A stretch of 56,144 nucleotides of DNA. It comes from a virus (taxonomy: Duplodnaviria; Caudoviricetes). The stretch covers positions 1-56,144 of IMG/VR virus record IMGVR_UViG_3300045957_000043; one strand, 5' to 3'. The position numbers and the translations under genes were made by a program. Within the stretch, counting starts at the first letter, position 1; every line of letters begins with the position of its first letter. Of this stretch, positions 25,033-47,710 are shown one piece after another. Under the pieces are notes generated by a model that searched no databases, was not told the DNA's origin, and saw only the letters and a program-made list of their open reading frames with translations.

Positions 25033-26229
25033 CTAGGTGTAGGTGACGCAGCTACCGGGGTAGTCAGGGTGACCAGTTCCGATATTGCGGATGTCGTATT
25101 TCCCAAATGACGGGAACGTAGCGTCGTTGCAGTCTGAGTACGATTCGATTTCGAATGCGAAGCACACACCGTCAGCCGGCACGTAGCCCGGCTGCGCCGT
25201 GACTTCGGCAAGGATCGCACTGACGTTAATCGGCACGTAAGTCTGTGTCGGACCACCAAAGGGAGCCCAGCTGTTAGACGGCTGAGCAGTGAGCGTAACA
25301 GACGCGGTGCTCAAAGCCCCGAGACTTAGCGACCCGACAGGCGTTCCGGCGTGACCCCGGATACGGAGCACCATCGTATCGCAATTCCCTAGGGAGTCTT
25401 CCATTGCCTGCAGATGCAGCACACCGGAAGTCGTGTTCGCGGGGATATCCGGCGAGCAAATCAACGGAGTTCTTTGGTTGCCGTTAGTCGGGTCGTGTCC
25501 GACATTCGGTCCTGCCGTCTGCGGTTGTACAGCCCAAGTGGATTCACCCTCGACGCGAGCCAGAATCGTGTTGTTGCAGCTCCCTGCTGGGTTTTCGCAA
25601 CACGTTTCATACGGAATCCAGACGCAGGAGCCGTCTGCGCCGTGGGAAAGTACTTGTTGCTGCGAAGCGATGTACCCAGGAAGTTGCCCAAGCTGCTCGC
25701 ACACGTCACTCTCGCCGCCGCAGAAGTCAGCTTCCCACCGCGCGGAGTTTGCGTTCCAGGTAGCGCAGATACGGTCTGCGCTCAGCGGCGCGGCGTCCTC
25801 CTCTGCCGGGCAGTTGCCGTCCAAGCAGGGAATGAAAATCTCATACGGCTGGTCAGACCGCTCGGTCCACAGTCCAGTACACGGCTCAGCTTCAGCCCAA
25901 AGCGCATAAATACTCGGAGTCGATGACGAGTAGGTCGCGTCGCCACACGTGACGGTTTTGCAAGTGAGTAGATTCTGCGTCGCGTCTGCGGGAATCCCGA
26001 ACGTACCGGCTGCCTCTTCAACTTCCAGATCAGTCATCGGACGAAAGCACTGTCGCTTGGGCAAACCCGTGATCGAGATGTTAGTCTTCTCGCCAACGGT
26101 TTTGATGTTCAGCGGCGGTGTTACTGATAAGCTCTCGCGGAGTTTCGCCGCGATCGCCTTGATCGCACTACCGGAGAGCTTATTCGTGCGCGTCGTGTCG
26201 CTGACTGCAGGTTTCTTGCGGAACACCAT
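25033..26229 (-). CDS. Cys-rich tail tip/fibre-like virion protein
   Basis: Last gene of the tail operon; 18 Cys/398 aa. Confidence 0.7.
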   Translation of the reverse strand: MVFRKKPAVSDTTRTNKLSGSAIKAIAAKLRESLSVTPPLNIKTVGEKTNISITGLPKRQCFRPMTDLEVEEAAGTFGIPADATQNLLTCKTVTCGDATYSSSTPSIYALWAEAEPCTGLWTERSDQPYEIFIPCLDGNCPAEEDAAPLSADRICATWNANSARWEADFCGGESDVCEQLGQLPGYIASQQQVLSHGADGSCVWIPYETCCENPAGSCNNTILARVEGESTWAVQPQTAGPNVGHDPTNGNQRTPLICSPDIPANTTSGVLHLQAMEDSLGNCDTMVLRIRGHAGTPVGSLSLGALSTASVTLTAQPSNSWAPFGGPTQTYVPINVSAILAEVTAQPGYVPADGVCFAFEIESYSDCNDATFPSFGKYDIRNIGTGHPDYPGSCVTYT

Positions 26230-27470
26230 TAAGGGTTAACCACCCAGCTGCTACCAGGAATCTGGTCGGATCGTTCTTCTGAGACGTTCGGAAACACTTG
26301 CGAGATACCGCAGAATGTTACCGTTGCAGTCCCTAAAGGTACAGTTGCAAAATCAAGCGACAAGAGATTCGCGAAGCTCGTCGAGGGGTAGGGCTTCTGC
26401 TCGCACTCGACGCTCTGGATTTCCAAAAAGTGACAGCCGATTTCGCAAGAGGTGTTCGGCTCCCAAGTACCGCCGGCGTCGATGCACGCTTGCTCGGTCA
26501 TCTGTGCAGTGCTGGTATCCGGTAGTGTACACGTGCCTATTGGGTTTTCGCTGCCTTCGCCAAGTGGATTACGCCGCCACGCACGGTTCCAGGCGCCGAC
26601 AACGCCGCTACACGCGCAACCGGCGGCGAGCGTTTCAAACGGGCACTTAGGTACAGTCTTGACGACGAAAATAAACTCAACATCGTAGGTCGGAGTGCAG
26701 TACCAAGTCGGTCGCTCGGTGATCTCCGCGTCAGCCAGCAATACAGACTCGCACGGGAGATTATCAAACATCGGCTCGCTGTTGACGTGGCCCACAGCAT
26801 TGCGGATGGTGTCGTGCGGCACATACGGCAGGTTCGACCAGCGAACCCGGTAAGTCGTTGTGTTGATCGCGATCGCCGGGTTGATATCTTCGTCCGTGAG
26901 GACTTGACCGTCGACGATGTACTCGAAGGACCTACCGGGGAGCGTCTGCACGTCGAGTTCGTTTTCTGTTTCGACCTCGATAAACGTGCAGTTCGCGATC
27001 GCAGGCAGAATCGGCGCGCAATCATCCGGCAGGCATTCGCTGCGCATCCAGATCGGCCAATTCGCAAAGTTCTTGTGCCGGTAGTTGACTGTAATCTCGA
27101 CAAAGCCTTCACCAACTAGCGGCGCGGTCATTAAGTGCGGCACACCGCACGCGGTAGAGACCGTCGTGCAGCAGTTCTGTAGCGGCTGAATCGTGAAGTC
27201 TTCAGGGTAAAGCGTTGAAGTCCCGCCACAGAGATCAGTCGGGCAGAATAAAGCCAGCGGCTTGGGTTCGGCAGCACAGTGTACTGTGCAGTCTTCGTAC
27301 TGCCAGATGCCGAAAATCTCAGTGATAAAGCTTGTAGCATAAAACGCCGGGCCGATGTATTTCATTACCGCCGTGGCGCCGTCTGGATTCTGCGTGAGTA
27401 CCGGGTAGCCCGCCTCGACTTGATAGCCGAACGCAAGATTCCCGATTCGCGAGCAGTCGTTGATCGTCAT
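26229..27470 (-). CDS. Cys-rich tail tip/hub-like protein
   Basis: Immediately after the tape measure; 22 Cys/413 aa. Confidence 0.7.
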   Translation of the reverse strand: MTINDCSRIGNLAFGYQVEAGYPVLTQNPDGATAVMKYIGPAFYATSFITEIFGIWQYEDCTVHCAAEPKPLALFCPTDLCGGTSTLYPEDFTIQPLQNCCTTVSTACGVPHLMTAPLVGEGFVEITVNYRHKNFANWPIWMRSECLPDDCAPILPAIANCTFIEVETENELDVQTLPGRSFEYIVDGQVLTDEDINPAIAINTTTYRVRWSNLPYVPHDTIRNAVGHVNSEPMFDNLPCESVLLADAEITERPTWYCTPTYDVEFIFVVKTVPKCPFETLAAGCACSGVVGAWNRAWRRNPLGEGSENPIGTCTLPDTSTAQMTEQACIDAGGTWEPNTSCEIGCHFLEIQSVECEQKPYPSTSFANLLSLDFATVPLGTATVTFCGISQVFPNVSEERSDQIPGSSWVVNP

Positions 27471-27471
27471 G

Positions 27472-30400
27472 TTAGACTAAGCCCCCTAGTTGATCAGGCG
27501 CGCGGCGCGCAAATTCAATGCCTTGCGCAAGAGCAGAAAGCTCCCGCTGAATCGCCGCGATGCCGTTGGCAGTGCGTTCTTGCTGCTGGAGCATTTTGGT
27601 TTCTGTAGTCACGGACTGCTGTAGCTGATTGCGAAAGTCAATGATTCCGAAAATCTGTGAGCGAACTTGCTGTGCGACGCTGTTGATGTCCGGCTCGGGC
27701 GCCGGTGCGCCTTGCTGCTGGCTGCGCTGCTGTTCGCGCTCCTGCTGAGCTTTTAGGCGGGCTTCCTCTTCAGCTTTGATAATCTTCTCGCGTTCGGCGA
27801 GTTCTTTTCGGTAAGCATCCGCACGGCGGTCCAGCTCGCCCTCTGCGATCCTGAGCTGCAGTTCGTTAGACACGGCATCCCCGAAGAACGTTAGCAGTTG
27901 ATCTTCGAACCCGCCGAGTAACTGGGCAGCGATCTCCGGCGCGCGGAACGGGTTACGGATCGCGTCGGTGATCCTTGCGATTACTCTGAAAGTGTTGTCC
28001 GCGAGTGCTTTCGCAAAGTTGATCGCGACACCGACCAGCTCGTAGCCAAAAGCTTTCGCGCGATACACCGCGATGTTAAACACCAGCTCGAAGTTATCCG
28101 CTAAGAACGTGATACCCTCGATCAAGCTATCGAAATTCTCGATACGAAACGCACGCTTGAGCCTTGTTTCGAGTTCTTCAAGGGCTGGCAGGGCTACCGC
28201 GCTAAGCCTGCGGAAACCCTCAGTCAACCGGATAATTGCGACGCCGTTGATGACCGACAGAATGCTAACGAGCCGCTGCCCCGCAGCGACGATCGGTGCG
28301 AAAAACTCAGCCGCGCGTCCGCTTTGGACAAACTCTTTGATGCGGTCGATCACGAGAGTAACCGACGTGGCTACGCTCTCAACGAACCGCGCGAATGCGG
28401 GGTTCTCACGGAGAAACCCGATTGCCTTGCCGATCTCCAGGCCGATCGTGCGGAATACACCTAAGAAGTTAGCGGCAACCTGCCGTCGCAATAGAGTAAA
28501 CTGATTGCCGAGTGTAGTAACGACACCGCTAAGTGATTCAGCCTGCAGTACAGCCTGCTCGAAAAACTCACTAAACGCCTGATCGCCTACGGCTTTAATA
28601 AACTCGCGGGCAGAAATCTCGTTATTGCGAAGAGCCTCTGTCAGAGCCTCCCCAGATTTACCGATTGCGCGTTCGACCAAGCCGATCGCACCGGGGAGAC
28701 CCTCGGTGAGCTGGTTGTTAAGTTCTTCGCTACGCAGTACACCCTTCGAGATCACTTGCTCATAGGCTCGAAACACGCGGTTCAGGTCGCTGGTTTCGAC
28801 ATTCAGGACGCGGGCGGCGGCAGCTGTGCCCCGGAAGAGCTGGAAAATTTCGTCTTGCGGAACACCTGAGTTCTTCGCGGCGGCTGAGATTTTACCGTAG
28901 AGATTCTCGATCTCGTCCAGCGGCACTGCCAGTTGCAAAGCCAACGCCTGGATTCTTTGTAGCTCTGCCTGGGAATCTGCCCCGAATGCAAAGCTAAACC
29001 TCAGCCTGATATCTTCGAGCCGCTGTGCAGTCTGGAATAACGCACGAGTTGCTAAGCCGCCGACTGCCGCTGCAATGAGCGGGAGATTCGCAACTAGATT
29101 GCGAATGCCTCGGGCCAGAGCGATCGTCGGACCTAGCGCGAACGTAACCGCACGAGTGAACGCGCGAAATGCAGTTCTGGCTACGAAGAGTAACGCTTGG
29201 CCTAGTGCACGGGTTGCGGCGACTAAAGCCTGTAGCCCCACCAAACCGCCGACTACCAACGAGCCGATACCCACTCCCGCTAGACTTGCAGCTGAACCGA
29301 CAAGCCCTAGGTTCTGAAACACCCGGACGGCAGACAGTCCGACACGGCCCAGCGCTGCCGCGTAGTTACCGATTCTGCCGCTGGCTGCGCCTAAGTCGAA
29401 GCCGAGCTGACGGATACTCGTGAGTGTAGTCTGGGCCTGCCGTGCTCGTGCGCCCTCGATCGTGGCGAGTCTCGTAGTGACCTGCAGCTGCAGCCGCAAG
29501 ATTCGCAAGCGTTGCTCGGATGTGATGTTTTGCTGCTCTAGTTGAGCCTGCACCCGTCGTTGGATCAGCGTTAGCCGCAGTCGTTCGTCGACGGCACCTT
29601 TAGCCCGCAAGACTTCTTCTCTTTGCTGGTTAAGCCGTTGTCGCTGGTCACGGGCTTGACCGCGACTGATTTCACGTTCCCGCTGCGCGTCTCGTTGGCG
29701 GCGCACCGCGCGGGCTCGGCGGTCACGGGCGGCTTGCTGCACTTGCGTGCGGTTGGTCACCCGTAACAGCCGAGCTTCCGGTGATGTGTCCTCGCGGGCA
29801 ATGCGCTGACGCTCTTTCGCGGCTTCCCGCAGGGCGCGTTGCTCTCTTGCGCGAATGAGGCTTCTTGCTTTTGCGTTACGCTTGAGCTGTTCCAGTTCAG
29901 TCCGCGCAGTGACTCGGGCCAGCCGAGCTTCGATCGAAGTTCCGGTGCGACGCAGTTCGCGCTGTTGTTCTCTTTCGCGTCGTCGACGGAGCGATCTAGC
30001 TCGTGCATCGCGGCGGACCTGCTCGATCTCGGCGCGCTGGGCTAATCTCGCTCGTCTGCCTTCCAGGCTGGTAGACTGCAGCAAGGCTCGCTGCCGTTCA
30101 CGCTCAGCGCGCTGAACTTCACGAGCTTGACGCCGTAGTGTAGCCAGTTCCTCGCGGGCAATCTGGTCGCTGACTTTCTTGCGGCGCGCAGCAAATAGCC
30201 TTCGAGCCAAGATTCTTCGAGCTAGAATTTGCTCTTCAGTTCTCGCGGCAATCCGCTCTCGGCGAGCTTCGAGGGTGTCGGCCCTGACTTCAGTAGGCTG
30301 GCGTGATCTACCAACGCGCGTTGTAGAGCTAGATTCCTGCCGGGCCTTTTGGACAGCGCTAGATAAAGCTGCAGCTCCCGTCGCGGCGACGGTAATCTTC

Positions 30401-30507
30401 TGCTTGCCGAGCCGCTTGCTGATCTTCTCCAGCTCGCGGAGCTGCTTGAAGACTTCTTCTAAGCCTTGCGCGCGAACCGTGATGAAAGTCGATAGCAGCT
30501 CAAACAT
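27472..30507 (-). CDS. Tail tape measure protein
   Basis: ~1011 aa helical; AYEQVISKGVLRSEELNNQLTEGLPGA tape-measure motif; follows the chaperone genes. Confidence 0.92.
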   Translation of the reverse strand: MFELLSTFITVRAQGLEEVFKQLRELEKISKRLGKQKITVAATGAAALSSAVQKARQESSSTTRVGRSRQPTEVRADTLEARRERIAARTEEQILARRILARRLFAARRKKVSDQIAREELATLRRQAREVQRAERERQRALLQSTSLEGRRARLAQRAEIEQVRRDARARSLRRRREREQQRELRRTGTSIEARLARVTARTELEQLKRNAKARSLIRAREQRALREAAKERQRIAREDTSPEARLLRVTNRTQVQQAARDRRARAVRRQRDAQREREISRGQARDQRQRLNQQREEVLRAKGAVDERLRLTLIQRRVQAQLEQQNITSEQRLRILRLQLQVTTRLATIEGARARQAQTTLTSIRQLGFDLGAASGRIGNYAAALGRVGLSAVRVFQNLGLVGSAASLAGVGIGSLVVGGLVGLQALVAATRALGQALLFVARTAFRAFTRAVTFALGPTIALARGIRNLVANLPLIAAAVGGLATRALFQTAQRLEDIRLRFSFAFGADSQAELQRIQALALQLAVPLDEIENLYGKISAAAKNSGVPQDEIFQLFRGTAAAARVLNVETSDLNRVFRAYEQVISKGVLRSEELNNQLTEGLPGAIGLVERAIGKSGEALTEALRNNEISAREFIKAVGDQAFSEFFEQAVLQAESLSGVVTTLGNQFTLLRRQVAANFLGVFRTIGLEIGKAIGFLRENPAFARFVESVATSVTLVIDRIKEFVQSGRAAEFFAPIVAAGQRLVSILSVINGVAIIRLTEGFRRLSAVALPALEELETRLKRAFRIENFDSLIEGITFLADNFELVFNIAVYRAKAFGYELVGVAINFAKALADNTFRVIARITDAIRNPFRAPEIAAQLLGGFEDQLLTFFGDAVSNELQLRIAEGELDRRADAYRKELAEREKIIKAEEEARLKAQQEREQQRSQQQGAPAPEPDINSVAQQVRSQIFGIIDFRNQLQQSVTTETKMLQQQERTANGIAAIQRELSALAQGIEFARRAPDQLGGLV

Positions 30508-30745
30508 GCTTGCCTCCCTTATGCAGCTGGGCGAATCCGGCAAACTTTCGCATTAGAGCTGCTTGCGCGTCTTTGATTTCTGCCTCGGAGGGTTTTTCTC
30601 GGTAGCCGAACATCAACAACCGATCGTAGTCACTCATCGAGCGAATGTAGTCCAAGGTCCATCCGGTTTCGCGGGCTAAGCCTGCGTAAGCTTCTTCGAG
30701 TGTCACCCGCTGCGTTCCTTCGCCGCTGGGCGGGATTAGTTTTTT
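30500..30745 (-). CDS. Tail assembly chaperone, -1 frameshift extension (GT-like)
   Basis: A AAA AAC at 30745-30739; the -1 frame reads KKLIPPSGEGTQRVTLEEAY...GWTLDYIRSM. Confidence 0.8.
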   Translation of the reverse strand, partial: KKLIPPSGEGTQRVTLEEAYAGLARETGWTLDYIRSMSDYDRLLMFGYREKPSEAEIKDAQAALMRKFAGFAQLHKGGKHV

Positions 30746-31182
30746 GCTGCTTGGTGCGCCTCGTCTGCTACGCTCATTACGATTGTGAATAGCTTGTCGA
30801 GATTCCCGTAGGCGTTCATGACTTGCTTGGCTTCTTCTACAGTGTCAATCTCACGGACTGCACACTGCAGTAAAATCGCAAGCGCTTCAGTGTCGCCCTT
30901 TACGAGTAAATCAAAAGCGTCTTCAGCGCCGAGCTGCGTATCTTTTCGTGAGTCAGCTAGAATCGCTTCAGCAAAACTACGCTGGGCCGCTTCGGGGAGC
31001 GACCCAGCGTAATCAGCGAAGTCCTTGATTGCTTCCTGTCTCGCTTGGCGGTGCCGGTATTTGAGCAGCGCGACTAGCTTGTCTAGTGCGTACTCGCTGA
31101 GCACGTTACCGCCTAAGTGATACGTGCGATCTTCGCCGTCGATCGTAACTTTGAAGTACTCGCCTTTTGGTGCCCCACTCAT
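30736..31182 (-). CDS. Tail assembly chaperone (G-like)
   Basis: Between tail tube and tape measure; ends in slippery AAKN*. Confidence 0.85.
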   Translation of the reverse strand: MSGAPKGEYFKVTIDGEDRTYHLGGNVLSEYALDKLVALLKYRHRQARQEAIKDFADYAGSLPEAAQRSFAEAILADSRKDTQLGAEDAFDLLVKGDTEALAILLQCAVREIDTVEEAKQVMNAYGNLDKLFTIVMSVADEAHQAAKN

Positions 31183-31207: not shown

Positions 31208-31873
31208 TTAGTTGTCCGAAGGCTTCGGTGCGGCTTTCAGGCCGGCTGCCACGAGCGGCGCGGGTGTAACACCGTCCGTACCGCCAACCGCGACACAAGT
31301 ACCGGAGTTGTCACCGATCACGTCGCTCTTGCTATACGGGAGGTACGGGCCGTTAGTGACATCAATCAGCCACTCGGCTGTCGAGACATCCTGACCTTCG
31401 TTCGTGGCGCCGAAGCCCGGAGGCGAGACCTGACCGTACAGGTAAATGCCTGCTTCGTTGGTCGTGTAGCCGCCGTCGATCAGCGTTGACATATCGGTGA
31501 CTGATGGCAACCAGCCCTGACCGCCGCAACCAGCTTTCAGATACCCAGGGTCAAAACCCAAGAAGAACCAAGTCGTCGCACCGACGCTCGGGTATCGCGG
31601 GTCGTCTAGGATATGGCAGTACAGCCAATCATCGCCGCACAGTGTGTTGGTGACAGTAACCTGCCACTGCAGTTGGTCAGCGCAGAACTTAATCGCCTGC
31701 CGACAAGTCGAGCTGGTTTGCTTTCGCGGGGCTTCCTGGCGGTTGGGATCGAGTTCCCAAGAATCAACGTGTTCCAGGAACGTCCAAGCAGTTACGTCGG
31801 TGTTGTCTGCCGGGTTGGTCGTGGCGACAAATACCGAGAAAATGCCTGGGCACAAGCATGAATCAGTAGCCAT
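31208..31873 (-). CDS. Major tail (tube) protein
   Basis: Position, size and beta-rich composition; GAGGA RBS. Confidence 0.75.
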   Translation of the reverse strand: MATDSCLCPGIFSVFVATTNPADNTDVTAWTFLEHVDSWELDPNRQEAPRKQTSSTCRQAIKFCADQLQWQVTVTNTLCGDDWLYCHILDDPRYPSVGATTWFFLGFDPGYLKAGCGGQGWLPSVTDMSTLIDGGYTTNEAGIYLYGQVSPPGFGATNEGQDVSTAEWLIDVTNGPYLPYSKSDVIGDNSGTCVAVGGTDGVTPAPLVAAGLKAAPKPSDN

Positions 31874-31938
31874 ATTGGTGTTTTCCTCGTTGCCCCACAA
31901 CAAAGTATCTAGCTAGGTACTATCTGTATTCTAGGCAC

Positions 31939-32391
31939 TTAACACAGGGGTTCGACGACCCAGAACACGAGCGTCGCCTGCGTCATCCAAAGGCATTCTG
32001 CAGCCTGGACGCTACGCGGGCGCCCGGAGAGCCGGTTGTAGCAAGCTGGGCCGAGATTCGTCATCAAACAGCGTTCAGCTTGCAGTCTTGCGCGGGTATC
32101 CTGCACGATCGCTTGCCCGGCATGACTTGAAGTCGTGAACACGCGCAGCCTCACGGCAACCTGATAACGCACAGCCGTGAAGCCGATTCGCTGCCCGGCG
32201 GGTGCGTTTTGCTCTTCGAGCACAGCATACGGCACACGGGGGCTGTTATTGCTTGCTTGCGAATCACACTTGCGCGCAAGGCCCCCGGTGTAGACTTCTG
32301 CCGCGCCGGCGAGACTTACCTGCTCGGCAATTAAGTCTTCCAGAGTGCAGTCCGTGAGGTCTTCAGTGCTGGGAGTACAGGCAAACGTCAT
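31939..32391 (-). CDS. Tail terminator-like protein
   Basis: Position; PYAVL...VAVRLRVF pattern. Confidence 0.65.
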   Translation of the reverse strand: MTFACTPSTEDLTDCTLEDLIAEQVSLAGAAEVYTGGLARKCDSQASNNSPRVPYAVLEEQNAPAGQRIGFTAVRYQVAVRLRVFTTSSHAGQAIVQDTRARLQAERCLMTNLGPACYNRLSGRPRSVQAAECLWMTQATLVFWVVEPLC

Positions 32392-32774
32392 GCAGTGAGA
32401 TCCTCTACAATCTGCGCGCGGATCTGATCGAGATCCTCGAAAAAGCTATCGTAAATCCCTAGGCGGTTTTGTAGTTCCGCGAGCCACTCCAGGTGCGTGC
32501 CACCACGAGTTTTGTGCGGAGGTCTCTGGATTCCTTGGTCCGGGCCGGGCATTCCTGCGCGCCCTTCGAGCTTGTTATTCGGGTTCACTGCCGAGAAGAT
32601 CGAATCCCGGCCTTGCCCGGTTCGCACAGCCGGGTACTCGCCTTCGTTTGAACTGGGGGGCCAAAACTTGGCCCCAACTTTTTCGCGGTAGCCGTCGGCA
32701 ATCTCGTCGACGGCGATTTCGACGGCTATCGCGAGGCGGTCTTCGATAGCTTTCTGTACTTGGGCGAGCGTCAT
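32388..32774 (-). CDS. Neck/tail completion protein (HK97 gp10-like)
   Basis: PSSNEGEYPAVRTGQGRDSI motif; position. Confidence 0.7.
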   Translation of the reverse strand: MTLAQVQKAIEDRLAIAVEIAVDEIADGYREKVGAKFWPPSSNEGEYPAVRTGQGRDSIFSAVNPNNKLEGRAGMPGPDQGIQRPPHKTRGGTHLEWLAELQNRLGIYDSFFEDLDQIRAQIVEDLTA

Positions 32775-33373
32775 ACCCGGTCCTCCCAGCCGAAGGGTGC
32801 TTCTCTCGCCACAACTTGAGCCAGTTGCTTAACGTCACATCGGGTCTCGATTGAGTCGACCACGTAGGTAGTTTCTTCGCACTGTACAAAGTCTCCGGGA
32901 CGCACGTTGATGTTCGCGCCGAAGCAGATTTTCACGGTGCTAGTGCATACTTCGGCGTCGTTTACGATCTGAGTTTCGAGCTTCTCTTCGCAGATAGAAA
33001 TCGGCACGTCGGTCGCCAAGTCGGTTGCGAAGACTTCTGTGGGGCAGTCTTCACCAGGAGCACGATACACCCGGACTACTGTAGCTAAACAGTCCGGGCA
33101 ATCGAGCACTGGTCTTGCTAAAGAAAGCACGAGAGTGCACGCCGCGAACTGGACACTTGAGATCAGATAACTAATCTCGTCGTGGATTGCCGTGTCCCCG
33201 ATTCGCGGGGGGTTCTCTTCAGTGTAGTCGCAGCTCGTGAAGACCGCTTCGATGAAGCTGCACGGCTGGGTTTCGCTTTTGGTGACTTGGTACTCATAGA
33301 GAAACCCTTCGACCTGGACTTCTGTGCCCGTGCACTCGGTGATCGTGAGTTCCTGCGTGCAGTAGCAGCTCAT
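32771..33373 (-). CDS. Cys-rich head-closure/neck-like protein
   Basis: Position; ..PGD....Y.V motifs; 14 Cys. Confidence 0.6.
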   Translation of the reverse strand: MSCYCTQELTITECTGTEVQVEGFLYEYQVTKSETQPCSFIEAVFTSCDYTEENPPRIGDTAIHDEISYLISSVQFAACTLVLSLARPVLDCPDCLATVVRVYRAPGEDCPTEVFATDLATDVPISICEEKLETQIVNDAEVCTSTVKICFGANINVRPGDFVQCEETTYVVDSIETRCDVKQLAQVVAREAPFGWEDRV

Positions 33374-33810
33374 GGGTTGCAGCAATCTCCGGTAGTGCTC
33401 GCCTCTTCAGTGCTGCCAAAGCAGCTGCACTGGTGGAGATGAAACCGCTCCCGGACGACATACGTGCCGCAGCCGTCGCACACGACCCGTGCAGGCTCAC
33501 ACTGCGGGGCGCCGCAGCGGTCAGACCAAATCGTCTGAAAAATCACGTCGCCTGTATCTTCTCGCTCGCAAATCTCGAACGTGAGCTGCACGAGCTGCCG
33601 CAACTGGGCAATCAGCTGGCTGGGGTCAGCAAACCGCACATCACCGATCGAAACCGGCTTGCAGAGTGCCGAGCTGCTACACATGAGCTTCGCGATCTGA
33701 TCGAGGGCCAACGCGCGGATCACGCAAGCTTGCTCGCAGCCGCAGCCCGAGATCAGGTTAATGTTGTCTAAACACTCTTCGAGCGTCGGCGTGGTGCAGT
33801 CATGAGCCAT
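33370..33810 (-). CDS. Cys-rich head-tail adaptor-like protein
   Basis: First neck gene; 16 Cys/146 aa. Confidence 0.6.
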   Translation of the reverse strand: MAHDCTTPTLEECLDNINLISGCGCEQACVIRALALDQIAKLMCSSSALCKPVSIGDVRFADPSQLIAQLRQLVQLTFEICEREDTGDVIFQTIWSDRCGAPQCEPARVVCDGCGTYVVRERFHLHQCSCFGSTEEASTTGDCCNP

Positions 33811-34147: not shown

Positions 34148-34934
34148 CAAACCCCTAAAGTGGCACGGCGGCAAACACTATCTCGCTCGCAAAATCATTG
34201 AGCTAATGCCCTCACACGTCCACTACGTGGAGCCGTTTTTCGGTGGTGGGAGTGTCCTTTTCGCGAAACCCTACGAAGGCGTCAGCGAAGTGATCAACGA
34301 CCGCAACGACGAGCTGGCTAACTTCTGGCTGGTTTTGAGCGACCCGGATCTGTTTGCTGACTTTCACCGCCGTGTGAGCGTTCTGGGCATGTCCGAAACC
34401 CTCTGGAAAACTGCCTGGGAGGGGTCTCCCGTGAAGCGAGCGGTTGCGTTCTTTGTGAAGTATCGGCAGAGCCGGCAAGGGCTTGGCAAAGACTTTGCAA
34501 CGCTGTCTCGCAATCGCACGCGGCGCGGGATGAACGAACAGGCTTCTAGCTGGCTCTCAGCAGTCGAAGGGCTGCCGGAAGTGCATTCCAGATTGCAACG
34601 AGTTGTCGTGCTCAACCGCGATGCCCTTAACGTGATCCACCAACAAGACGGTGAGCAAACGCTCTTCTACCTCGACCCCCCGTATTTGCACGAAACCCGT
34701 GTAACAACTAACGAATACGGCGAGCACGAGATGGTCCGCGAGGACCACGAAAAGCTACTAGAGCTGCTTCTCCAAGTGCGGGGTAAATTCCTGCTTTCAG
34801 GCTACCCGAGCGAGCTGTACGCTCAGTTTGCGACTGAAGGCAACTGGCGGCGGGTCGACTTTGAGATCGACAACAAGGCCAGCTCACGAGCCCGCAAGCC
34901 CCGCGTCACCGAGTGTGTCTGGCTAAACTACTGA
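34134..34934 (+). CDS. D12/Dam-class N6-adenine DNA methyltransferase
   Basis: LKWHGGK, YVEPFFGGGSV, EVIND, FYLDPPY. Confidence 0.95.
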   Translation: MLTSSKPLKWHGGKHYLARKIIELMPSHVHYVEPFFGGGSVLFAKPYEGVSEVINDRNDELANFWLVLSDPDLFADFHRRVSVLGMSETLWKTAWEGSPVKRAVAFFVKYRQSRQGLGKDFATLSRNRTRRGMNEQASSWLSAVEGLPEVHSRLQRVVVLNRDALNVIHQQDGEQTLFYLDPPYLHETRVTTNEYGEHEMVREDHEKLLELLLQVRGKFLLSGYPSELYAQFATEGNWRRVDFEIDNKASSRARKPRVTECVWLNY

Positions 34935-35460
34935 CGCGCAAGATTGCGGCGACGGGGATCACAGCGGCTTTGGTGAAGTCACCTGGACCGCCGTAGACGA
35001 GCCCGACCAGCTTACCCTCGAAATAGACCGGCCCGCCGCTGTGACCGGGCTGGCTGGCGAAACCGCACTGGTAGTTGCCCGAGTTGAAGAACAGCTCGAC
35101 GCTGCCTTGCTTGGTGGCGAATTCTCCGCGCGGAAACCCTTCGCTGGTAACCCGGTCACTGGGTAAAGGGGTATTACCGATAGCTACAGGCGTCAGCGTC
35201 GCAGCGGACTTTAATACTGCCACGTCTAGTTTCTTGTCTATTTGCAACACGACTGCAGTGTAGTGCGTGTTTATTGTTGCTTCGGGCTTTTCGCCCGCAG
35301 CCCACCCGTGCGCGCAGGTTGCAATCAGCTGCTCGCCGTCAAGCGTGCCGATACAGACGCCGGTCAAGACGCCGGCGTCTGGGGTTTCGATCTTGCACAC
35401 GTGCGGGCTTTGCCCAAAAGCCTGACAGGCCATGAGGAGAATAAAAACAAAGCACCGCAT
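34906..35460 (-). CDS. Secreted trypsin-like serine protease
   Basis: Signal peptide; TCAH, DVAVL, GHSGGP. Confidence 0.9.
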   Translation of the reverse strand: MRCFVFILLMACQAFGQSPHVCKIETPDAGVLTGVCIGTLDGEQLIATCAHGWAAGEKPEATINTHYTAVVLQIDKKLDVAVLKSAATLTPVAIGNTPLPSDRVTSEGFPRGEFATKQGSVELFFNSGNYQCGFASQPGHSGGPVYFEGKLVGLVYGGPGDFTKAAVIPVAAILRVSSLARHTR

Positions 35461-35478: not shown

Positions 35479-35847
35479 TTAGGAAGCGATCACTTCCAAC
35501 CACCGCTGGTTGAATTTCTTGATAGCTCGGATCTGCTTTTCCCAGATTTTCACCGTCTCGCGAAACGACAATTCAGAGACCATCCCGTCGGTGATCCCTT
35601 CCGAAGCCATATCGACCTGCACCACAGACAAGTCGTCATCACTTAACCCGTGAAATTCGATACCGGCCTTAAACACAACGTCGCCGGATTCAGTGACCAC
35701 CTGCGAGACCCAGACTTCACCCGTGGTCGGGTCTGCCTCGACCTCCATCGCCATCGCCCAGGTCTTCGAGTCAAAATCAACAGGCGATTTTCTGTTGATC
35801 TTTTGTTTGACCTTCTGAGTTTTCTCTTTTTTCAACATCTGAAACAT
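35479..35847 (-). CDS. Hypothetical protein
   Basis: 122-aa ORF in the operon. Confidence 0.65.
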   Translation of the reverse strand: MFQMLKKEKTQKVKQKINRKSPVDFDSKTWAMAMEVEADPTTGEVWVSQVVTESGDVVFKAGIEFHGLSDDDLSVVQVDMASEGITDGMVSELSFRETVKIWEKQIRAIKKFNQRWLEVIAS

Positions 35848-36118
35848 CCTTCTCTAAAAAGTGTGTAGTCACACGACCGTCTTTCTTGCGAACAACAATC
35901 CGTTTTGCACCCAGATCGCGTAGTTGGCGGACTAGTACTCTAGCCTCTGAGGCTGTCGGCGCTTTGGTAACGCCGACTAGCTCAACGCATTCGCCGTCCG
36001 TCCAGACGACAGTTGCGCACCACTGATACTTGCGGGGCGGGCGACAGCCTTCATCAGAGTTGAGAGAATCAAAGATACGGATCACGCCCACCAGCGGCTC
36101 GTACGCTGCTTGCGACAT
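35777..36118 (-). CDS. Hypothetical protein
   Basis: 113-aa ORF in the operon. Confidence 0.65.
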   Translation of the reverse strand: MSQAAYEPLVGVIRIFDSLNSDEGCRPPRKYQWCATVVWTDGECVELVGVTKAPTASEARVLVRQLRDLGAKRIVVRKKDGRVTTHFLEKDVSDVEKRENSEGQTKDQQKIAC

Positions 36119-36137
36119 GACAATGGCCCCTAATTGC

Positions 36138-36986: not shown

Positions 36987-38358
36987 AGAAGTACTCCACA
37001 GATTCAGTCCAGCGAGGATACCCCGGTGAATCGAGTTCGTGCGACTTGAAGCCGAACGCATCGTCAGTACCGCAGCGGCGATACAAGGTGTGGTAGCCAG
37101 GGAAGTTAGCCGCGATATAAGTCAGCCAGTCCGCCCAGAACGCGCCGGCTTCTGGTCCGTTACTGATTGCAGCTAAGTTTGTGTCAATCGGCCCGTTGTC
37201 GTTTCGGTTAAGCGAAAAGCCAGTCTCGTAGAACCAAATCGGCAAGCCTGAGCTAGATGCGTAACCCTGCCACGTCGCCAAGTGCGGCAGCACTCTCGTG
37301 TCGCGGTCGTCTTCGCACGCGGTGATCGCTTCAGCTGGCGTCGACGTGGCTGTCGCGGTATTTGTCGCCCAGGTCTGACCAAAATACGGCGCGACCGCCA
37401 TTGCATCCAGAAACGTTCCGGGTCGCGTGCGACCTGACACGGCTTGGTTGTAGGTATTCGGCACGCTGAGCCAAGCACCCCACACACCGTAGATATCTAC
37501 GCCCGGCATCGTCGTCTTGAAAATCTCGGCGGTCCTGTCGCTGCGGTCCCAGCTGTAAGCAGCAATGCGGGCTGTGTCGCCGGCGCCAGCGTAGCCCGAC
37601 GCGGCAGCGGTATTCGTGCTCCAGTTTGCCGCAAACGAAGAGTTCCAGTTTTCGTTACCCCACTCAACGATCAACGGTGTAGTCGGGCCGGCAGCCGCGT
37701 ATTCGTTCGCGACTTCCTGGATAATCGTGTCGTTCCATGTGCAGTGGATGTTAATCCACGGTACAGTCCCAGTCTGGTTCGAGATGTCTACGATGTCAGC
37801 CGGCGTGATCATTCGCCGAATGAACTGGTTCGCGCCCGTGGGCGTCGGGTAGAAAACCCATCGCTGGCTAGCAACTGAAGTACGCGGCTGAAAGTTAGTA
37901 AAGTGCGCGTTCATGTACCGCACGACACAGGCGTTCTGCACGTCGGCAAGAAAAGTCGGCGTCCAGTTGTCGGGGTCGCCGTCGCGCTTCAGACTAAACC
38001 CGGCTAGATCCCCGTCGAATTGCCAGTTAACGGTAGTGCTGCCTGCAGTAATCGTCTTTGTTGCGCCATTAGTTGAAGTGCCGGTGCCCGACCAAGTAGC
38101 TGTATAGTCGCCAGCTGGCCACGTGCGGCCCTGTCGCGCCTCGATATTGAGTTGGGTCGGCCCGGTAACCGGATAGCCAGTCGTCGGGTCGGTCGTCGCG
38201 GCGCCGATCGTGTGATAGAACTGCGAGTACTTGCCGAAGTCGTAGTGGATTCTTGAGGCAGAAAACGCGCCGGGTTCGGCGACGTTGAAACCTAGCTTGA
38301 ACTCGGGGTCTGGATCAGGGGGCGGATCGCCCGCACAGATCGGTTGGATGAACGCCAT
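36979..38358 (-). CDS. Glycoside hydrolase-like (clan GH-A TIM barrel) protein
   Basis: VRYM, PWINIH, IVEWGNENWN (acid/base), APYF, FYETG (nucleophile). Confidence 0.7.
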   Translation of the reverse strand: MAFIQPICAGDPPPDPDPEFKLGFNVAEPGAFSASRIHYDFGKYSQFYHTIGAATTDPTTGYPVTGPTQLNIEARQGRTWPAGDYTATWSGTGTSTNGATKTITAGSTTVNWQFDGDLAGFSLKRDGDPDNWTPTFLADVQNACVVRYMNAHFTNFQPRTSVASQRWVFYPTPTGANQFIRRMITPADIVDISNQTGTVPWINIHCTWNDTIIQEVANEYAAAGPTTPLIVEWGNENWNSSFAANWSTNTAAASGYAGAGDTARIAAYSWDRSDRTAEIFKTTMPGVDIYGVWGAWLSVPNTYNQAVSGRTRPGTFLDAMAVAPYFGQTWATNTATATSTPAEAITACEDDRDTRVLPHLATWQGYASSSGLPIWFYETGFSLNRNDNGPIDTNLAAISNGPEAGAFWADWLTYIAANFPGYHTLYRRCGTDDAFGFKSHELDSPGYPRWTESVEYFCG

Positions 38359-38451: not shown

Positions 38452-38453
38452 GG

Positions 38454-38789
38454 CTAGCAGCCTAGGCTACCTGAAGCTACCAGCGTGTCGCTCGCGGCGG
38501 GCGCGCCGCCGGCCCTGATAAACACGCTGTAGCACATGCACCCCGGCAACGCCGGTAAGTCGATTGAGTACCAAGACTCGTCGCCTGAGAGCGGCGTGCC
38601 GGTCTCTTCAGTCAACAGAGCTGAACTGTAGTTAGCCCGGCTCGGGTCACTGTAGCTACCGTCGAGCTGGCTCGTGTTGAAGTTGTAGTGCTGACTGCCA
38701 TCGCACAGACCCGCGATAGCGTAAAGATTCTGTCCAGCAGCCGCGCGGGTCGCAACAGTCGAGCATTTTGTAATTTCTGCGTTGTGCAT
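38454..38789 (-). CDS. Hypothetical (probable virion) protein
   Basis: 111-aa beta-rich ORF with AAAGG RBS. Confidence 0.65.
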   Translation of the reverse strand: MHNAEITKCSTVATRAAAGQNLYAIAGLCDGSQHYNFNTSQLDGSYSDPSRANYSSALLTEETGTPLSGDESWYSIDLPALPGCMCYSVFIRAGGAPAASDTLVASGSLGC

Positions 38790-42213: not shown

Positions 42214-45030
42214 TTAAGGCCAGACCGGTGCTTTGTGTCCTTCACGCACACTGCACTGGATCGTGCCGTCGTACTCCACTCGCCAGCTCAGCACTACGCC
42301 TTTGGTGTTGTCATTAGTCAAGATCCAAGCCGGCACGTTCGGTGCGGTGTCCGCGTCCGGGCCGAAGTCCCAGAGGCTACCCCAAGCCGGCGGGAAACTT
42401 GAGCCTTGCACAAACACTTGTCCGCTGTCGCCCGGCGAAGCGTTCGTGAGATTCGCGACAGTTCTCCCGCCAGCCAAGAGTTGGGGCAAAAACGCTTGTG
42501 GGCCAAGCGACACGTCGTACACAATGCTCGTCTGTGTACGGTCCAAAACCTGATAGCTCGGTCCTGCCGCGACGCCGCCCGTATCACAACACAACTGCGT
42601 GACAGTCAGGCTACCGCTAACAGAGTCAATGCAAGTGTGATACTTGAGCGACAGAGCACCCGGAGACGTGTAAATCAAAATGTCGCCAGACTGTTGCGGC
42701 GAAGCATTTGCCGCGTACCAAACCAGAATCTCGTTGTTAGTCGGAGCTTCTGGATCGCCGAACGATAAACCGCCGCCCGAGTTATCAATCGTGTAGCACT
42801 TGTCTTTCGGCAGCGAGTGATACTCGCCGGCATCATCCGTGTAGCCGAGAATATTCCCGTTCGCCCCCGTGTTATCCGAAACGAGCGTGAACTCGCTTGC
42901 GGTTGTGCTCCACGTCGCGGGGTCAACAAACGGACCGGCAGCGGCTTGGTTAACGCAGCAAGCATCGAGTCCTGTTGTTTGGATCAAGCTGGCATTGCCG
43001 TCGTCGTCCACGAAGTACCGATAGGTAGTCCCGTCGCCGTGGTCGTACTCAAGGACTGTTGGCCCGGAAATATTCTGTGCAGTCACATAGCTTTCGGCTT
43101 CTGTGACAACCAGCGGACTTGTGAAGCTACCGCCGGGGACCGTAGCGATCGGCGAGAGACAGCCTTGGATCGCTGCGCAGATATCAACCGTGACTGTAGT
43201 GCCGTCACCGTCGTTATGCACAATGGTGCCGTCGGCTAAGCCGTTTGCGCCGGTGTTGTCTGTGAGTACAGAAACACTACCGGTATCTACACCTGTAGTC
43301 TGAATCAGGCTCGCGTTACCGTCGTCATCCACGAAGTACCGATAAGTAGTCCCGTCGCCGTGATCGTACTCAAGGACTGTTGGCCCGGAAATATTCTGTG
43401 CAGTGACGTAGCTCTCGGCTTCTGTCACGACAAGCGGACTCGTGAACGTGCCGCCGGGGACCGTAGCGATCGGCGAGAGGCAGCCCTGGATTGCCGCACA
43501 CACGTCTACCGTGACTGTAGTCCCGTCACCGTCGTTGTGCACAAACGTGCCGTCGGCTAAGCCGTTCGCACCAGTGTTGTCGGTAAATACACTGACGGCG
43601 CCCGAGCTGATACCTGTAGTTTGGATTAGGCTCGCGTTACCGTCGTCATCCACGAAGTACCGATAAGTAGTCCCGTCGCCGTGATCGTACTCAAGCACCG
43701 TCGGTCCAGAGATACTCTGGGCCACGACGTAGCTCTCGGCTTCTGTCACGACAAGCGGACTCGTGAACGTGCCGCCGGGAACTGTTTCGATCGGTGACAG
43801 GCAGCCTTGGATCGCCGCGCAAATGTCGATGGTGACCGTAGTCCCGTCGCCGTCGTTATGCACAATCGTGCCGTCGGCTAAGCCAGTCACGCCAGTGTTG
43901 TCGGTCACTACAGACACCGCGCCGGCGCCGCCGCCTACCGGGACAGAACCGACACAGCTCTCGGTCATGACCGTGATATTCAGGTTCACGCCGTCACCGG
44001 CAGCGGTCACGACTTGATCAGAAATCGAGCTACCTGCAGGCAGAATCTCGCCGTCCAAGATGCTCGTCATGTCGAGCCGCGTCTGGCCAGCCGGCAAAAT
44101 CCACGGGTCTGCTGGGTTGACTACGCCACCAGGACCAGGAAGCAGCGTCGCCGAGCCGGGGCTCGTACCCGCCGCGATCCACATGAGGTGGAACTCGATA
44201 TCGCTCGCCGAAGTGCCCGTAACTTCCGCCCAAGCGCCCACAATGGTCTCTGAGGTGTTCGGGTTGACCATCGTGGAGTCAGAAGGCGTCGGTACTGAAC
44301 CCGAATCAACCGTCACGCTGCCGACTTTACCGACGGTGGTTTTCGTCCGCATACACACGCCGGGCAGCGGGTGCTCAACGCCGTTTTCGTCGACGTAGCC
44401 TACAAGGTACTGCACGGTGTCGTCGGGATTCTCGTAGAAGACGAACGTGTGGTTCGCAGACGGATTGGCCGCTGTAGCGCCCGCCGGCCAAGTGGTGGGG
44501 TCGTTAACGTCAACTAGCCCGCCGACAGTTGCTTCGATAGTGAAGTCGCAGCAGTTCTCGCCCGGCACTCGTAGTACCGTGACGTTGCCGTCATCATCTA
44601 CACCGTAGCGATATAGCCCGCCAGAACCGTCGGTGTAATCGATAAATGTCGGGCCAGAAGGCGAGCCTGCAGCTGCGTACACCGCAGCCAGATCGAGCGG
44701 GTCAACCAGACTCCCGGTCGTTACTGTAGCGATCGGGTCAAGGCAGCCTTGGATCGCCGCGCAAATGTCGATGGTGACCGTAGTCCCGCCGCCGTCGTTA
44801 TGCACGATCGTGCCGTCAGCTAAGCCGTTTGCCCCGGTGTTGTCCGTAACTACACTAGTAGCTCCCGTCGCCGTGATCGTCACGCTCAACGGGTCACCGT
44901 TAGTCTGCTGCAGCGTTAGCAGGCCCGTTTCGCTGGTGTAAACTAGGTCTGTGTTGCAACAGCCGTCGCCGCCTCCCCCGCAAGAATGCGCAACGTAACT
45001 ACTGCCGGGGGGAATTTGTGAGCCTGCCAT
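42214..45030 (-). CDS. Large repeat-containing virion fibre protein
   Basis: 938 aa, Thr/Gly/Asp-rich with four internal repeats; fibre-like C-terminal domain. Confidence 0.75.
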   Translation of the reverse strand: MAGSQIPPGSSYVAHSCGGGGDGCCNTDLVYTSETGLLTLQQTNGDPLSVTITATGATSVVTDNTGANGLADGTIVHNDGGGTTVTIDICAAIQGCLDPIATVTTGSLVDPLDLAAVYAAAGSPSGPTFIDYTDGSGGLYRYGVDDDGNVTVLRVPGENCCDFTIEATVGGLVDVNDPTTWPAGATAANPSANHTFVFYENPDDTVQYLVGYVDENGVEHPLPGVCMRTKTTVGKVGSVTVDSGSVPTPSDSTMVNPNTSETIVGAWAEVTGTSASDIEFHLMWIAAGTSPGSATLLPGPGGVVNPADPWILPAGQTRLDMTSILDGEILPAGSSISDQVVTAAGDGVNLNITVMTESCVGSVPVGGGAGAVSVVTDNTGVTGLADGTIVHNDGDGTTVTIDICAAIQGCLSPIETVPGGTFTSPLVVTEAESYVVAQSISGPTVLEYDHGDGTTYRYFVDDDGNASLIQTTGISSGAVSVFTDNTGANGLADGTFVHNDGDGTTVTVDVCAAIQGCLSPIATVPGGTFTSPLVVTEAESYVTAQNISGPTVLEYDHGDGTTYRYFVDDDGNASLIQTTGVDTGSVSVLTDNTGANGLADGTIVHNDGDGTTVTVDICAAIQGCLSPIATVPGGSFTSPLVVTEAESYVTAQNISGPTVLEYDHGDGTTYRYFVDDDGNASLIQTTGLDACCVNQAAAGPFVDPATWSTTASEFTLVSDNTGANGNILGYTDDAGEYHSLPKDKCYTIDNSGGGLSFGDPEAPTNNEILVWYAANASPQQSGDILIYTSPGALSLKYHTCIDSVSGSLTVTQLCCDTGGVAAGPSYQVLDRTQTSIVYDVSLGPQAFLPQLLAGGRTVANLTNASPGDSGQVFVQGSSFPPAWGSLWDFGPDADTAPNVPAWILTNDNTKGVVLSWRVEYDGTIQCSVREGHKAPVWP
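42965..43920. repeat. Three tandem 321-bp repeats (107 aa); a diverged fourth copy at ~44580-44860
   Basis: GTGTTGTC anchor at 43253, 43574, 43895. Confidence 0.9.
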
Positions 45031-45054: not shown

Positions 45055-45483
45055 TTAGCCGACGAGTTCAGCTGTCAACGGATCGGGGCCGTTCTTGACG
45101 TTCCAGCTGCTACGGGTGCGTTTGCGGAATTCAGAAATAACCTGGGTCGCTTGGTTCCTCTGATCGAAGTCCGACCAGACCGTATACCCCACAGGTTCGC
45201 CGTCTCCGCCGAGATATCGCTTGTCGCGGACGACCCACTTGTGCTTCCCAGCGGATCGGCGTTCGGCTTCGATGCGTGCAAGAATCTTGCCTGCTTTGTG
45301 TTGGTGCTCTTCGAGCGTCGCCATCTGACCCCCGATCGACGCCACGCGCAAGTTTTGAATTTCAAGCTGCTCTTCCAGCTGTTGAATTCTATCTTCGAGT
45401 TGTTTTTGCTTTCCGCTTGCACGGGCGCCAGAAACAAGGGTGTTAGTTTCGTTGGAGACTGTAGTTTCAGTGGTTTTTGCCAT
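45055..45483 (-). CDS. Coiled-coil hypothetical protein after the capsid gene
   Basis: QKQLEDRIQQLEEQLEIQ; GAGGG RBS. Confidence 0.7.
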   Translation of the reverse strand: MAKTTETTVSNETNTLVSGARASGKQKQLEDRIQQLEEQLEIQNLRVASIGGQMATLEEHQHKAGKILARIEAERRSAGKHKWVVRDKRYLGGDGEPVGYTVWSDFDQRNQATQVISEFRKRTRSSWNVKNGPDPLTAELVG

Positions 45484-45542: not shown

Positions 45543-45577
45543 CTCTTTATCGTCGTAGTCACACCCCACGACGAGCG

Positions 45578-47134: not shown

Positions 47135-47146
47135 CAGTGAGTTCTC

Positions 47147-47710
47147 CTAGCAGCGCCCGGCGTCGAAGGCGAGCAAGATGCAACGCTTCGTAGGCCGGGT
47201 GATCGAATTCAAGAGGGTCGGGCTCACATCAGCCGGGGCAGCCGGGTCAGGCGGGCACGACAACCGTTGCTGACAGTTACACGCACACTCTTCGACTGCT
47301 TCGAGAATGCCAGTACCGTTCGCAACAACAATTGTGTTGCTAACGAACGTGACTGCATTGACCGTCTCAGTCGCAAAAGTGTATTTCTCGCCCGGAATGC
47401 TCGCTACCGGAGTAGCGGTCTGCATTTCCACCCAACCGCAGCTGGCGATCTGTACCGTATGGCACTCGCCAGCTTCAAAGGTTTCAACGGTGAAACCAAC
47501 AAAGTTATCGACCGCCAAGCTAAGCGTTACCGCCGAGCTAAACGGGCGAACCGCGCTGGTCACGGGATCTTGGAACATGGGCGTTCCGCCAAGCGGAATC
47601 CCAAATGCCGGGTCAACCAAGTACTTGCGCAGACTGCAGGGTCCGCAAGTCCGGCGGATCTTGTTGCAAGTCAAATTGCAACTGCCGTCGTCAAGGCATT
47701 TCAGGCTCAT
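47147..47710 (-). CDS. Head decoration/cement protein (Cys-rich)
   Basis: Position between scaffold and MCP; FVGF motif; 13 Cys/187 aa. Confidence 0.65.
   Translation of the reverse strand: MSLKCLDDGSCNLTCNKIRRTCGPCSLRKYLVDPAFGIPLGGTPMFQDPVTSAVRPFSSAVTLSLAVDNFVGFTVETFEAGECHTVQIASCGWVEMQTATPVASIPGEKYTFATETVNAVTFVSNTIVVANGTGILEAVEECACNCQQRLSCPPDPAAPADVSPTLLNSITRPTKRCILLAFDAGRC

Follow-up and report, generated by a model that had tools for sequence, protein, structure and literature searches.

Cysteine-rich virion proteins of an uncultured siphovirus-type phage and the possibility of a disulfide-locked particle

The virus record IMGVR_UViG_3300045957_000043, analysed here over its entire length of 56,144 bases (the window; linear ends, CheckV completeness ~68%), belongs to an uncultured phage of siphovirus type whose head module is lambda-like; eight proteins encoded by its late genes are extremely rich in cysteine. 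These are the major capsid protein (MCP), a 187-residue putative decoration or cement protein in the gene position of lambda gpD, proteins of 146, 204 and 150 residues in the adaptor, head-closure and tail-terminator positions, a putative tail tube, and proteins of 413 and 398 residues encoded after the tape measure. The question raised by this locus is whether so many cysteines tie the finished particle together or serve some other end. Most likely, the window holds an extreme case of the virion disulfide locking already known from a few phages; that such bonds exist, when they form, and which of them join subunits is what we infer from the evidence set out below.

Cysteine content of the late proteins and its conservation

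Taken together, the eight proteins contain 121 cysteines in 2247 residues (5.38%), compared with 2.46% in 25 replication and early open reading frames (ORFs) and 1.44% in the remaining late ORFs, with the difference between the eight proteins and the replication and early set giving a Fisher p of 1.4e-10. Over-dispersion of the cysteine counts is strong across 51 ORFs (chi-square 195.6, 50 degrees of freedom, p 4e-19): taken singly, six proteins show an excess, and a deficit is seen in the tape measure (p 2e-10) and the portal (p 0.001). The excess in virion proteins remarked upon in a first-pass annotation of the window therefore exceeds chance. The hand counts of that annotation are reproduced from the translated ORFs for the MCP and the 187-, 146-, 150-, 413- and 398-residue proteins (Table 1), and its count for the 204-residue protein (200 residues from an internal ATG) is likewise matched. 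Those of the tube, tape measure and portal agree once differing start codons are considered: there are eight cysteines in the tube, which has 231 residues from an upstream TTG or 221 from an ATG, the tape measure has one in 1023 residues from a TTG or none in 1011 from the ATG at MFELL, and the portal has three in 519 residues from a GTG or two from an ATG. Cysteine occurs within the first 10 residues of six of the eight virion proteins, compared with nine of 43 other ORFs (p 0.005), and is the last residue in two of the eight.

As base composition alone would give 3.2% cysteine, the whole proteome is not above codon-random expectation, and it lies clearly above the values of 0.7–1.4% quoted for phage proteomes in the report on Agrobacterium phage Milano (PMC10491603). 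The possibility that the cysteines stem from a misassigned frame or an unusual genetic code was rejected, with the MCP frame folding confidently and its homologues aligning throughout.

The pattern of a particle rich in cysteine outside and poor inside, as first described, is only roughly true. The low-cysteine set, comprising the tape measure (which must exit or unfold), the transient chaperone, the scaffold/protease and the portal, fits an avoidance of unwanted crosslinks, and two cysteine-free proteins of 128 and 142 residues that had not been listed also fit. The description falters in the neck and tail-joining block, where the 128-residue protein has no cysteine, and with the adaptor-position protein, which at 11% cysteine is not part of the outer shell.

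Comparison with related phages gives the same profile protein by protein. Four relatives were reached via a tube alignment and one MCP homologue (IMG/VR records G001–G004, 31.8 to 68.3 kilobases (kb), G003 and G004 being near-duplicates), with 23–46% identity to the window proteins in BLAST. From G001 to G004, cysteine makes up 4.4, 3.3, 3.1 and 3.1% of the MCP, 3.6, 3.9, 3.9 and 3.9% of the gpD-position protein (seven cysteines each), and 3.9, 3.1, 3.1 and 3.1% of the tube. Adaptor-position homologues found by BLAST in G002–G004 contain 8.2, 10.4 and 10.3%, and the adaptor position of G001 is occupied by a 110-residue protein with 10 cysteines. Terminator-position homologues, found by BLAST in G001 and G004 only, have six cysteines each (4.3%), the head-closure-position protein of G001 has eight, and homologues of the 413-residue protein have 13 in G003 and nine in G004; BLAST found no homologue of the 398-residue protein in G001–G004. 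The cysteine-poor proteins are equally recognisable, with no cysteine in the tape measures of the three relatives having one (668, 1235 and 1239 residues) or in any of the four homologues of the 142-residue protein, and with 0, 1, 0 and 0 in those of the 128-residue protein from G001 to G004. Chaperone-position homologues have 0–3 cysteines, portal homologues 0.8–1.1% and terminases 1.0–1.5%. Since crude whole-record ORF sets of the four relatives contain 1.4–1.9% cysteine, the window ranks highest of the five genomes.

The positions of the cysteines are conserved to varying degrees. In pairwise global alignments against G001, cysteine is aligned to cysteine at 17 of 23 sites in the MCP, 5/8 in the tube, 4/7 in the terminator-position protein, 6/14 in the head-closure-position protein and 7/16 in the adaptor-position protein, compared with 0/9 in the terminase and 1/6 in the protease/scaffold; these counts are upper estimates, as the scoring matrix rewards cysteine matches. 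MAFFT alignments give 6/8 for the tube, 4/7 for the terminator-position protein and 4/14 for the head-closure-position protein. C18, C74 and C89 are invariant among nine members of the tube family, whilst all five genomes retain an N-terminal cysteine and a C-terminal C-C in the adaptor-position protein, and C5, C146 and C152 in the gpD-position protein. The recurrence of the per-protein profile in four relatives, set beside the terminase control (0/9), bears out the view that the virion-protein cysteines are under selection.

Cysteine pairs in the major capsid protein

The 518-residue protein is, on its predicted structure, an HK97-fold MCP. AlphaFold2 with a 35-row alignment, containing 34 homologues drawn from 1.84 billion cluster representatives, gives a predicted local distance difference test score of 80.9, versus 36.7 from the single sequence. 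Foldseek comparison of this model with the PDB returns 189 matches at E ≤ 0.001, with all of the matches listed being phage capsids or encapsulins; the HK97 capsid 1ohg_A is matched at E 6.9e-6, and capsid chains of phage Milano are also present. Searches of the MCP against PDB sequences and profiles gave no meaningful match. The model consists of a helical N-terminal extension (residues 1–155) and an HK97-fold body (residues 156–518). Most homologues lack part of the extension or have a much shorter one, and in the model it is partly of low confidence. Three of the 23 cysteines lie within it, and it may be a scaffold-like domain of the delta type that is lost during maturation. Prediction of a complex between the MCP body and the 187-residue protein gave no answer (score 0.01), and is evidence neither way.

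Cysteine content varies widely within this capsid family, with the 34 homologues containing from 0 to 23 cysteines, and 19 of the 31 full-length members at 2.5% or more and 12 below. The HK97 fold itself thus needs no cysteine, and the gain and loss of individual columns can be followed. Over 32 MCPs, with counts given as both present, first only, second only and neither, several columns appear and disappear together: C175/C236 (26/0/0/6), C157/C341 (26/0/1/5), C184/C215 (10/0/1/21), C321/C353 (9/3/0/20) and C315/C376 (13/0/7/12). Similar pairs that are not found in the window MCP occur on other branches, at columns 342/447 (7/0/0/25) and 275/313 (5/0/1/26). The quartet C157/C175/C236/C341 is complete in 25 full-length members and wholly absent from five, with homologue P0014 having only C157 and C341, and P0018 lacking C157 alone.

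As relatedness inflates such tables, a tree was built with the cysteines masked, and independent contrasts were counted. On this tree C321 changes eight times and C353 six times, yielding 6–7 independent contrasts in which the partner moved the same way in 5.5–5.7 and oppositely in none (median p 0.031). The other MCP pairs cannot reach significance, as each has only 1–4 contrasts. Pairwise coupling in the aligned sequences is thereby shown for one pair, C321–C353, with the remaining pairs merely compatible with it.

Disulfides weighed against other uses of cysteine

The reading we favour, with modest confidence, is that disulfides would form in the virion after its release, in the manner of phage Milano and at about twice Milano's cysteine density. 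The particle would be put together with its thiols free, in the reducing cytoplasm of the host, which is presumed because there are no export-like N-termini and no known oxidase gene; when read by eye, the N-termini of the eight proteins show no hydrophobic leader, and none resembles an export signal. The thiols would then oxidise to disulfides after lysis, some of the bonds probably acting as intra-chain staples, such as C321–C353 of the MCP, and others as inter-chain links through cysteines close to the N- and C-termini; capsomers, cement, neck, tube rings and tip would all be covalently locked by them. Few or no cysteines are carried by the proteins that must leave, unfold or act inside, and the 128- and 142-residue proteins are cysteine-free as well.

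Several precedents have been published. The proteome of Milano contains 1.4% cysteine and its structural proteins 2.1–2.4%, contents that the Milano authors regard as remarkable beside 0.9% for T4 and 0.7% for A511 (PMC10491603, PMC10811340). Most cysteines of the Milano structural proteins are disulfide-bonded, N-terminal cysteines form inter-chain links, and dithiothreitol (DTT) abolishes the extra stability (PMC10491603). The window phage resembles Milano in its HK97-fold MCP, in a higher cysteine content of structural than of other proteins, in the conservation of these cysteines in related phages, and in the involvement of capsid, cement, neck and tail. Furthermore, Cys3 and Cys7 of Milano LP1 and Cys3 of BW2 serve as terminal covalent hooks, and terminal cysteines are conserved here. 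In contrast, Milano has a contractile tail and the lower overall and structural contents given above, whereas the window phage has 2.46% overall, 5.4% in the eight proteins and 7–11% in single proteins; Milano's bonds were seen by cryo-electron microscopy and tested with DTT, whilst the window phage is known as a contig, from sequence only. No sequence relationship was detectable between the window proteins and Milano.

Two other systems involve the tail. The tube rings built by the siphovirus tube protein gp39 are disulfide-linked (PMC13576161), and the likeness lies in a non-contractile tube with conserved cysteines that are confined to one branch of the family, much as the MCP family here ranges from 0 to 23. 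The gp39 protein differs in having two cysteines per monomer and in belonging to Pfam PF08813, whereas the tube here has eight, three of them invariant, and no Pfam family. In cyanophage Pam3, fibres are disulfide-linked to the baseplate and DTT releases peripheral parts (PMC9942802), with cysteine-rich regions of tail-end proteins holding those parts covalently as may be the case here; the Pam3 bonds are restricted to baseplate and fibres, whilst the enrichment in the window covers head, neck, tube and tip. The proposed mechanism is closest to those of Milano, Pam3 and gp39, although the window phage shows no kinship in sequence with any of the three.

Several observations weigh against a disulfide-locked particle. 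Only C321/C353 passes the phylogeny-aware test, and as the quartet C157/C175/C236/C341 changes only 1–3 times, its pattern could be the product of one or two historical events. Several proteins have an odd number of cysteines (23, 13 and 7), and of the 32 MCP bodies 19 have an even and 13 an odd number, so not all cysteines can be in intra-chain pairs. The residues flanking cysteine are only slightly more polar than those around other residues (hydrophobic fraction 0.31 versus 0.35–0.41), and the cysteines of the tip proteins are poorly conserved, with few or no positions common to the relatives. In an anoxic or sulfidic habitat, moreover, disulfides would not persist. Finally, the gut-phage MCPs of a recent survey preprint are predicted to contain mostly buried, isolated thiols, with another sulfur lying close enough to bond for only one thiol among 47 cysteine sites (bioRxiv 10.64898/2026.07.03.736451). 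As those enriched MCPs are predicted to hold mostly isolated thiols, cysteine enrichment alone is no proof of disulfides.

The last of these points leads to the most serious alternative, namely that the cysteines remain free thiols and crosslink nothing, being kept for packing or kinetic stability, kept as sacrificial redox buffers or tolerated in an anoxic habitat, as a compositional habit of the whole lineage that is sharpened in structural proteins. A general background shift (2.46% in the window, 1.4–1.9% in the crude ORF sets of the relatives) and the commonness of odd counts speak for this, as does the proposal of hydrophobic packing made in the survey, where median MCP cysteine contents are 0.51% (gut) and 0.21% (INPHARED), and at least three cysteines place an MCP in the top quartile (bioRxiv 10.64898/2026.07.03.736451). 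The surveyed proteins resemble the present one in being HK97-fold MCPs with conserved, convergently acquired cysteines; they differ in that isolated buried thiols are predicted there, whereas the window MCP has 23 cysteines (4.4%) in columns that co-vary in pairs. This gain and loss in pairs, with one pair significant on the tree, speaks against free thiols. Additionally, the cysteines gather at chain termini, where flexible arms are usual rather than cores, their flanks are the least hydrophobic of 12 residue types tested, and the lack of cysteine in proteins that unfold or exit fits an avoidance of crosslinks better than it fits packing. We therefore regard free thiols as an unlikely, albeit credible, explanation.

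A further alternative is that the disulfides do not arise spontaneously but are made by phage-encoded catalysts, with three candidates in the window: a membrane protein of family DUF1360, in which a CxxC immediately precedes a hydrophobic segment, a putatively exported thioredoxin-fold protein bearing CPPC, and a putatively membrane-anchored protein with a HiPIP-like four-cysteine domain. The DUF1360 gene adjoins the tail block and converges on its end, and homologues occur in G001 (56507–56971), G003 (36136–36462) and G004 (1196–1522), with the CxxC invariant in all four phages (CAYC in the window, then CFKC, CQWC and CQWC); a homologue is missing only from G002, a 31.8-kb fragment. A tblastn search of cultured phages gave no match to the window DUF1360 protein. 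The genes of the thioredoxin-fold and HiPIP-like proteins lie side by side, the latter directly downstream of the former, but neither was found in G001–G004, and as these relatives have cysteine-rich virions nonetheless, the two genes are not needed for one. It is not obvious, moreover, how an exported or membrane protein would gain access to particles built in the cytoplasm, and a full-text literature search by name found no functional study and no activity for DUF1360, whose CxxC may be a general family feature. Catalysis by these proteins appears quite improbable, and the DUF1360 protein is best regarded, on its motif and gene position, as a candidate thiol-disulfide component whose link to the virion is a lead and not a finding. 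The same doubt attaches to a bolder proposal, in which a five-genome siphovirus lineage would have nearly all of its exposed virion proteins stitched at about twice the cysteine density of the densest solved phage, catalysed or timed by DUF1360 and, in the window, by the CPPC protein with the HiPIP-like protein as electron sink, together forming an undescribed oxidative-folding relay; this too we hold to be improbable.

Large DNA viruses encode Erv1/ALR sulfhydryl oxidases as the basis of their own cytoplasmic disulfide pathways. The window phage is like them in having cysteine-rich virion proteins without export signals, and differs in having no Erv1/ALR domain in the record. Six-frame searches of the record for domains of Erv1/ALR, VKOR, DsbA and DsbB (PF04777, PF07884, PF01323 and PF02600) gave no matches at E ≤ 1, although with the record ~68% complete such a gene could lie outside it, and an Erv-type oxidase encoded within the record was rejected as no Erv1/ALR domain is present in its six frames.

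The least probable alternative is that of thiolate clusters holding zinc, iron or copper within or between subunits, or binding the particle to metal sulfide minerals. The quartet C157/C175/C236/C341 is mostly all-or-none, as a site of four cysteines would be, other members of the tube family begin with a C-x2-C-x3-C cluster, and three of the eight proteins have one CxxC each; however, these three compare with 6.7 ± 2.4 in shuffled sequences, none of the spacings between C-C and C-x6-C is over-represented in the eight proteins, and histidine is depleted in them (1.1%, versus 2.4% in replication and early proteins). P0014 keeps C157 and C341 without C175 and C236, so two separate pairs fit better than one four-ligand site. 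A zinc-ribbon-like protein of G001 (52546–53901, plus strand, locus L006; 451 residues, 30 cysteines mostly in regular CxxC/CxxxC pairs forming a repeat array), encoded upstream of the terminase and with no counterpart in the window, looks quite unlike the virion proteins. Zinc-type sites as the main explanation were rejected on the shortage of CxxC, and a metal-binding virion is very unlikely as a whole. The proposal first made for this locus, of a disulfide-crosslinked or metal-stapled virion, is accordingly retained in its first half, for which selection on cysteine, a co-varying MCP pair and the precedent of solved phages speak, and disfavoured in its second.

Disulfide networks are a recently recognised means of hardening the particles of tailed phages, with few solved, Milano, Pam3 and one tube family among them. 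If the cysteines are bonded as we favour, no other example compared here would be as dense as the present lineage, which has a 23-cysteine HK97-fold MCP against survey medians of 0.2–0.5% and would raise the question of how dozens of correct disulfides arise in cytoplasmically assembled particles that have no known oxidase. The lineage would also offer natural templates for the design of covalently stabilised capsids and nanotubes, and its capsid family allows cysteine-rich members to be compared with cysteine-free ones such as P0032 and P0034. Should the habitat be anoxic, the cysteines must serve another purpose, which would also be of interest.

Gene order, assignments and neighbouring genes

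The role names given to the late proteins in the first-pass annotation differ in their footing. Those of tape measure, portal and terminase stand by Pfam and that of the MCP by fold, whilst decoration, adaptor, head closure, terminator and tip follow from gene order only. The eight cysteine-rich proteins have no Pfam or PHROG match, even at E up to 5, and PDB sequence and profile searches with the gpD-position, tube, terminator-position, head-closure-position and 128-residue proteins gave nothing meaningful. Pfam matches elsewhere in the record include a large terminase, a lambda-family portal, the tape measure, a family-A DNA polymerase, an SNF2 helicase, a DUF2800 nuclease and several accessory genes.

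The late genes lie on the minus strand, with the head genes in the order small cysteine-rich protein, terminase, portal, 321-residue protease/scaffold-like protein, 187-residue protein, 518-residue MCP and 142-residue protein. The neck and tail block runs through proteins of 146, 204, 128, 150 and 231 residues, a 148-residue protein in the position of the tail-assembly chaperone, the tape measure, and the 413- and 398-residue proteins (Table 1).

Table 1. Features of the window discussed in the text, in order of coordinates; cysteine counts are followed by percentages where available
Feature	Coordinates	Strand	Cysteines	Basis
143-aa protein: N-terminal hydrophobic segment, Pro-rich linker, C-terminal four-Cys domain	18373..18804	-		Pfam HiPIP, E 1.7e-4; 23.7 bits in six-frame search
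Thioredoxin-fold protein, CPPC motif, signal-peptide-like N-terminus	18816..19262	-		Pfam Thioredoxin, E 1.3e-6
346-aa protein, signal-like N-terminus	23012..24052	+		
DUF1360 membrane protein	24697..25026	+		Pfam DUF1360, E 6.6e-8
398-aa protein, last gene of tail block	25033..26229	-	18 (4.5%)	gene order only
413-aa protein, tail-tip position after tape measure	26229..27470	-	22 (5.3%)	gene order only
Tape measure	27472..30543	-	0 (ATG) or 1 (upstream TTG)	Pfam TMP_3, E 4.9e-25
148-aa protein, tail-assembly-chaperone position	30736..31182	-	1	gene position
Putative tail tube, 221 aa from ATG	31208..31903	-	8	position and weak ESM Atlas lead
150-aa protein, tail-terminator position	31939..32391	-	7 (4.7%), including C5 and C-terminal C150	gene order only
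128-aa neck/tail-joining protein, contrast case inside the Cys-rich block	32388..32774	-	0	gene position
204-aa protein (200 aa from ATG), head-closure position	32771..33385	-	14 (6.9%)	gene order only
146-aa protein, adaptor position, first gene of neck/tail block	33370..33810	-	16 (11.0%)	gene order only
Trypsin-like peptidase	34906..35460	-		
113-aa late protein	35777..36118	-	C-terminal Cys	
Matrixin-type (M10) metallopeptidase	36138..37061	-		
111-aa late protein	38454..38789	-	C-terminal Cys	
938-aa late protein	42214..45030	-	22 (2.3%)	short DUF3155 match, E 2.3e-5
142-aa protein after MCP gene	45055..45483	-	0	gene position
Major capsid protein, 518 aa	45578..47134	-	23 (4.4%)	AlphaFold2 and Foldseek
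187-aa protein, putative decoration/cement	47147..47710	-	13 (7.0%), including C5 and C-terminal C187	gene order only
Portal	48723..50282	-	3 (0.6%)	Pfam Phage_portal_2, E 1.1e-8

The gene of the 187-residue protein sits between those of the protease/scaffold and the MCP, which is the position of lambda gpD, and near a lambda-family portal. Its gene position thus agrees with a gpD-like role; it has no Pfam, PHROG or PDB profile match, and its ESM Atlas model is poor. In the public annotation this protein begins only at residue 45 (143 residues), which would drop five N-terminal cysteines. The 187-residue form looks right, since alignment to it begins at residue 1 both for homologue P0043 and for the four relatives; P0043, 42% identical, has none of the five N-terminal cysteines at those columns. 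The tube gene lies directly upstream of the chaperone-position and tape-measure genes, and its protein gives a weak ESM Atlas lead to clusters named "major tail protein" (score 0.92).

Searches for kin beyond the four relatives yielded little. The MCP and head region have no tblastn or megablast match in cultured phages, and as the terminase and polymerase matches in cultured phages all fall below 35% identity and are scattered over many host genera, the host cannot be inferred. Scans of genome contigs with the MCP alignment and with a DUF6745 protein found no prophage or host relative, scans of viral contigs with the window MCP, A3, A11 and A12 gave no matches, and a scan of metagenomes yielded a single 5.4-kb fragment (L001). 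In word-index homologue searches the adaptor-position protein matched only itself, and the 187-residue protein gave one homologue.

Among the genes within or beside the late region are those of the two peptidases and, on the opposite strand, of the 346-residue protein; no endolysin was recognisable among the ORFs scanned in the window. The head and tail modules are separated by ~11 kb encoding large proteins and peptidases. Here the 938-residue protein, for which BLAST found no homologue in the four relatives, sits with proteins of 463, 607 (a beta-helix) and 459 residues. The small late proteins of 113 and 111 residues end in cysteine, as do the gpD-position and terminator-position proteins.

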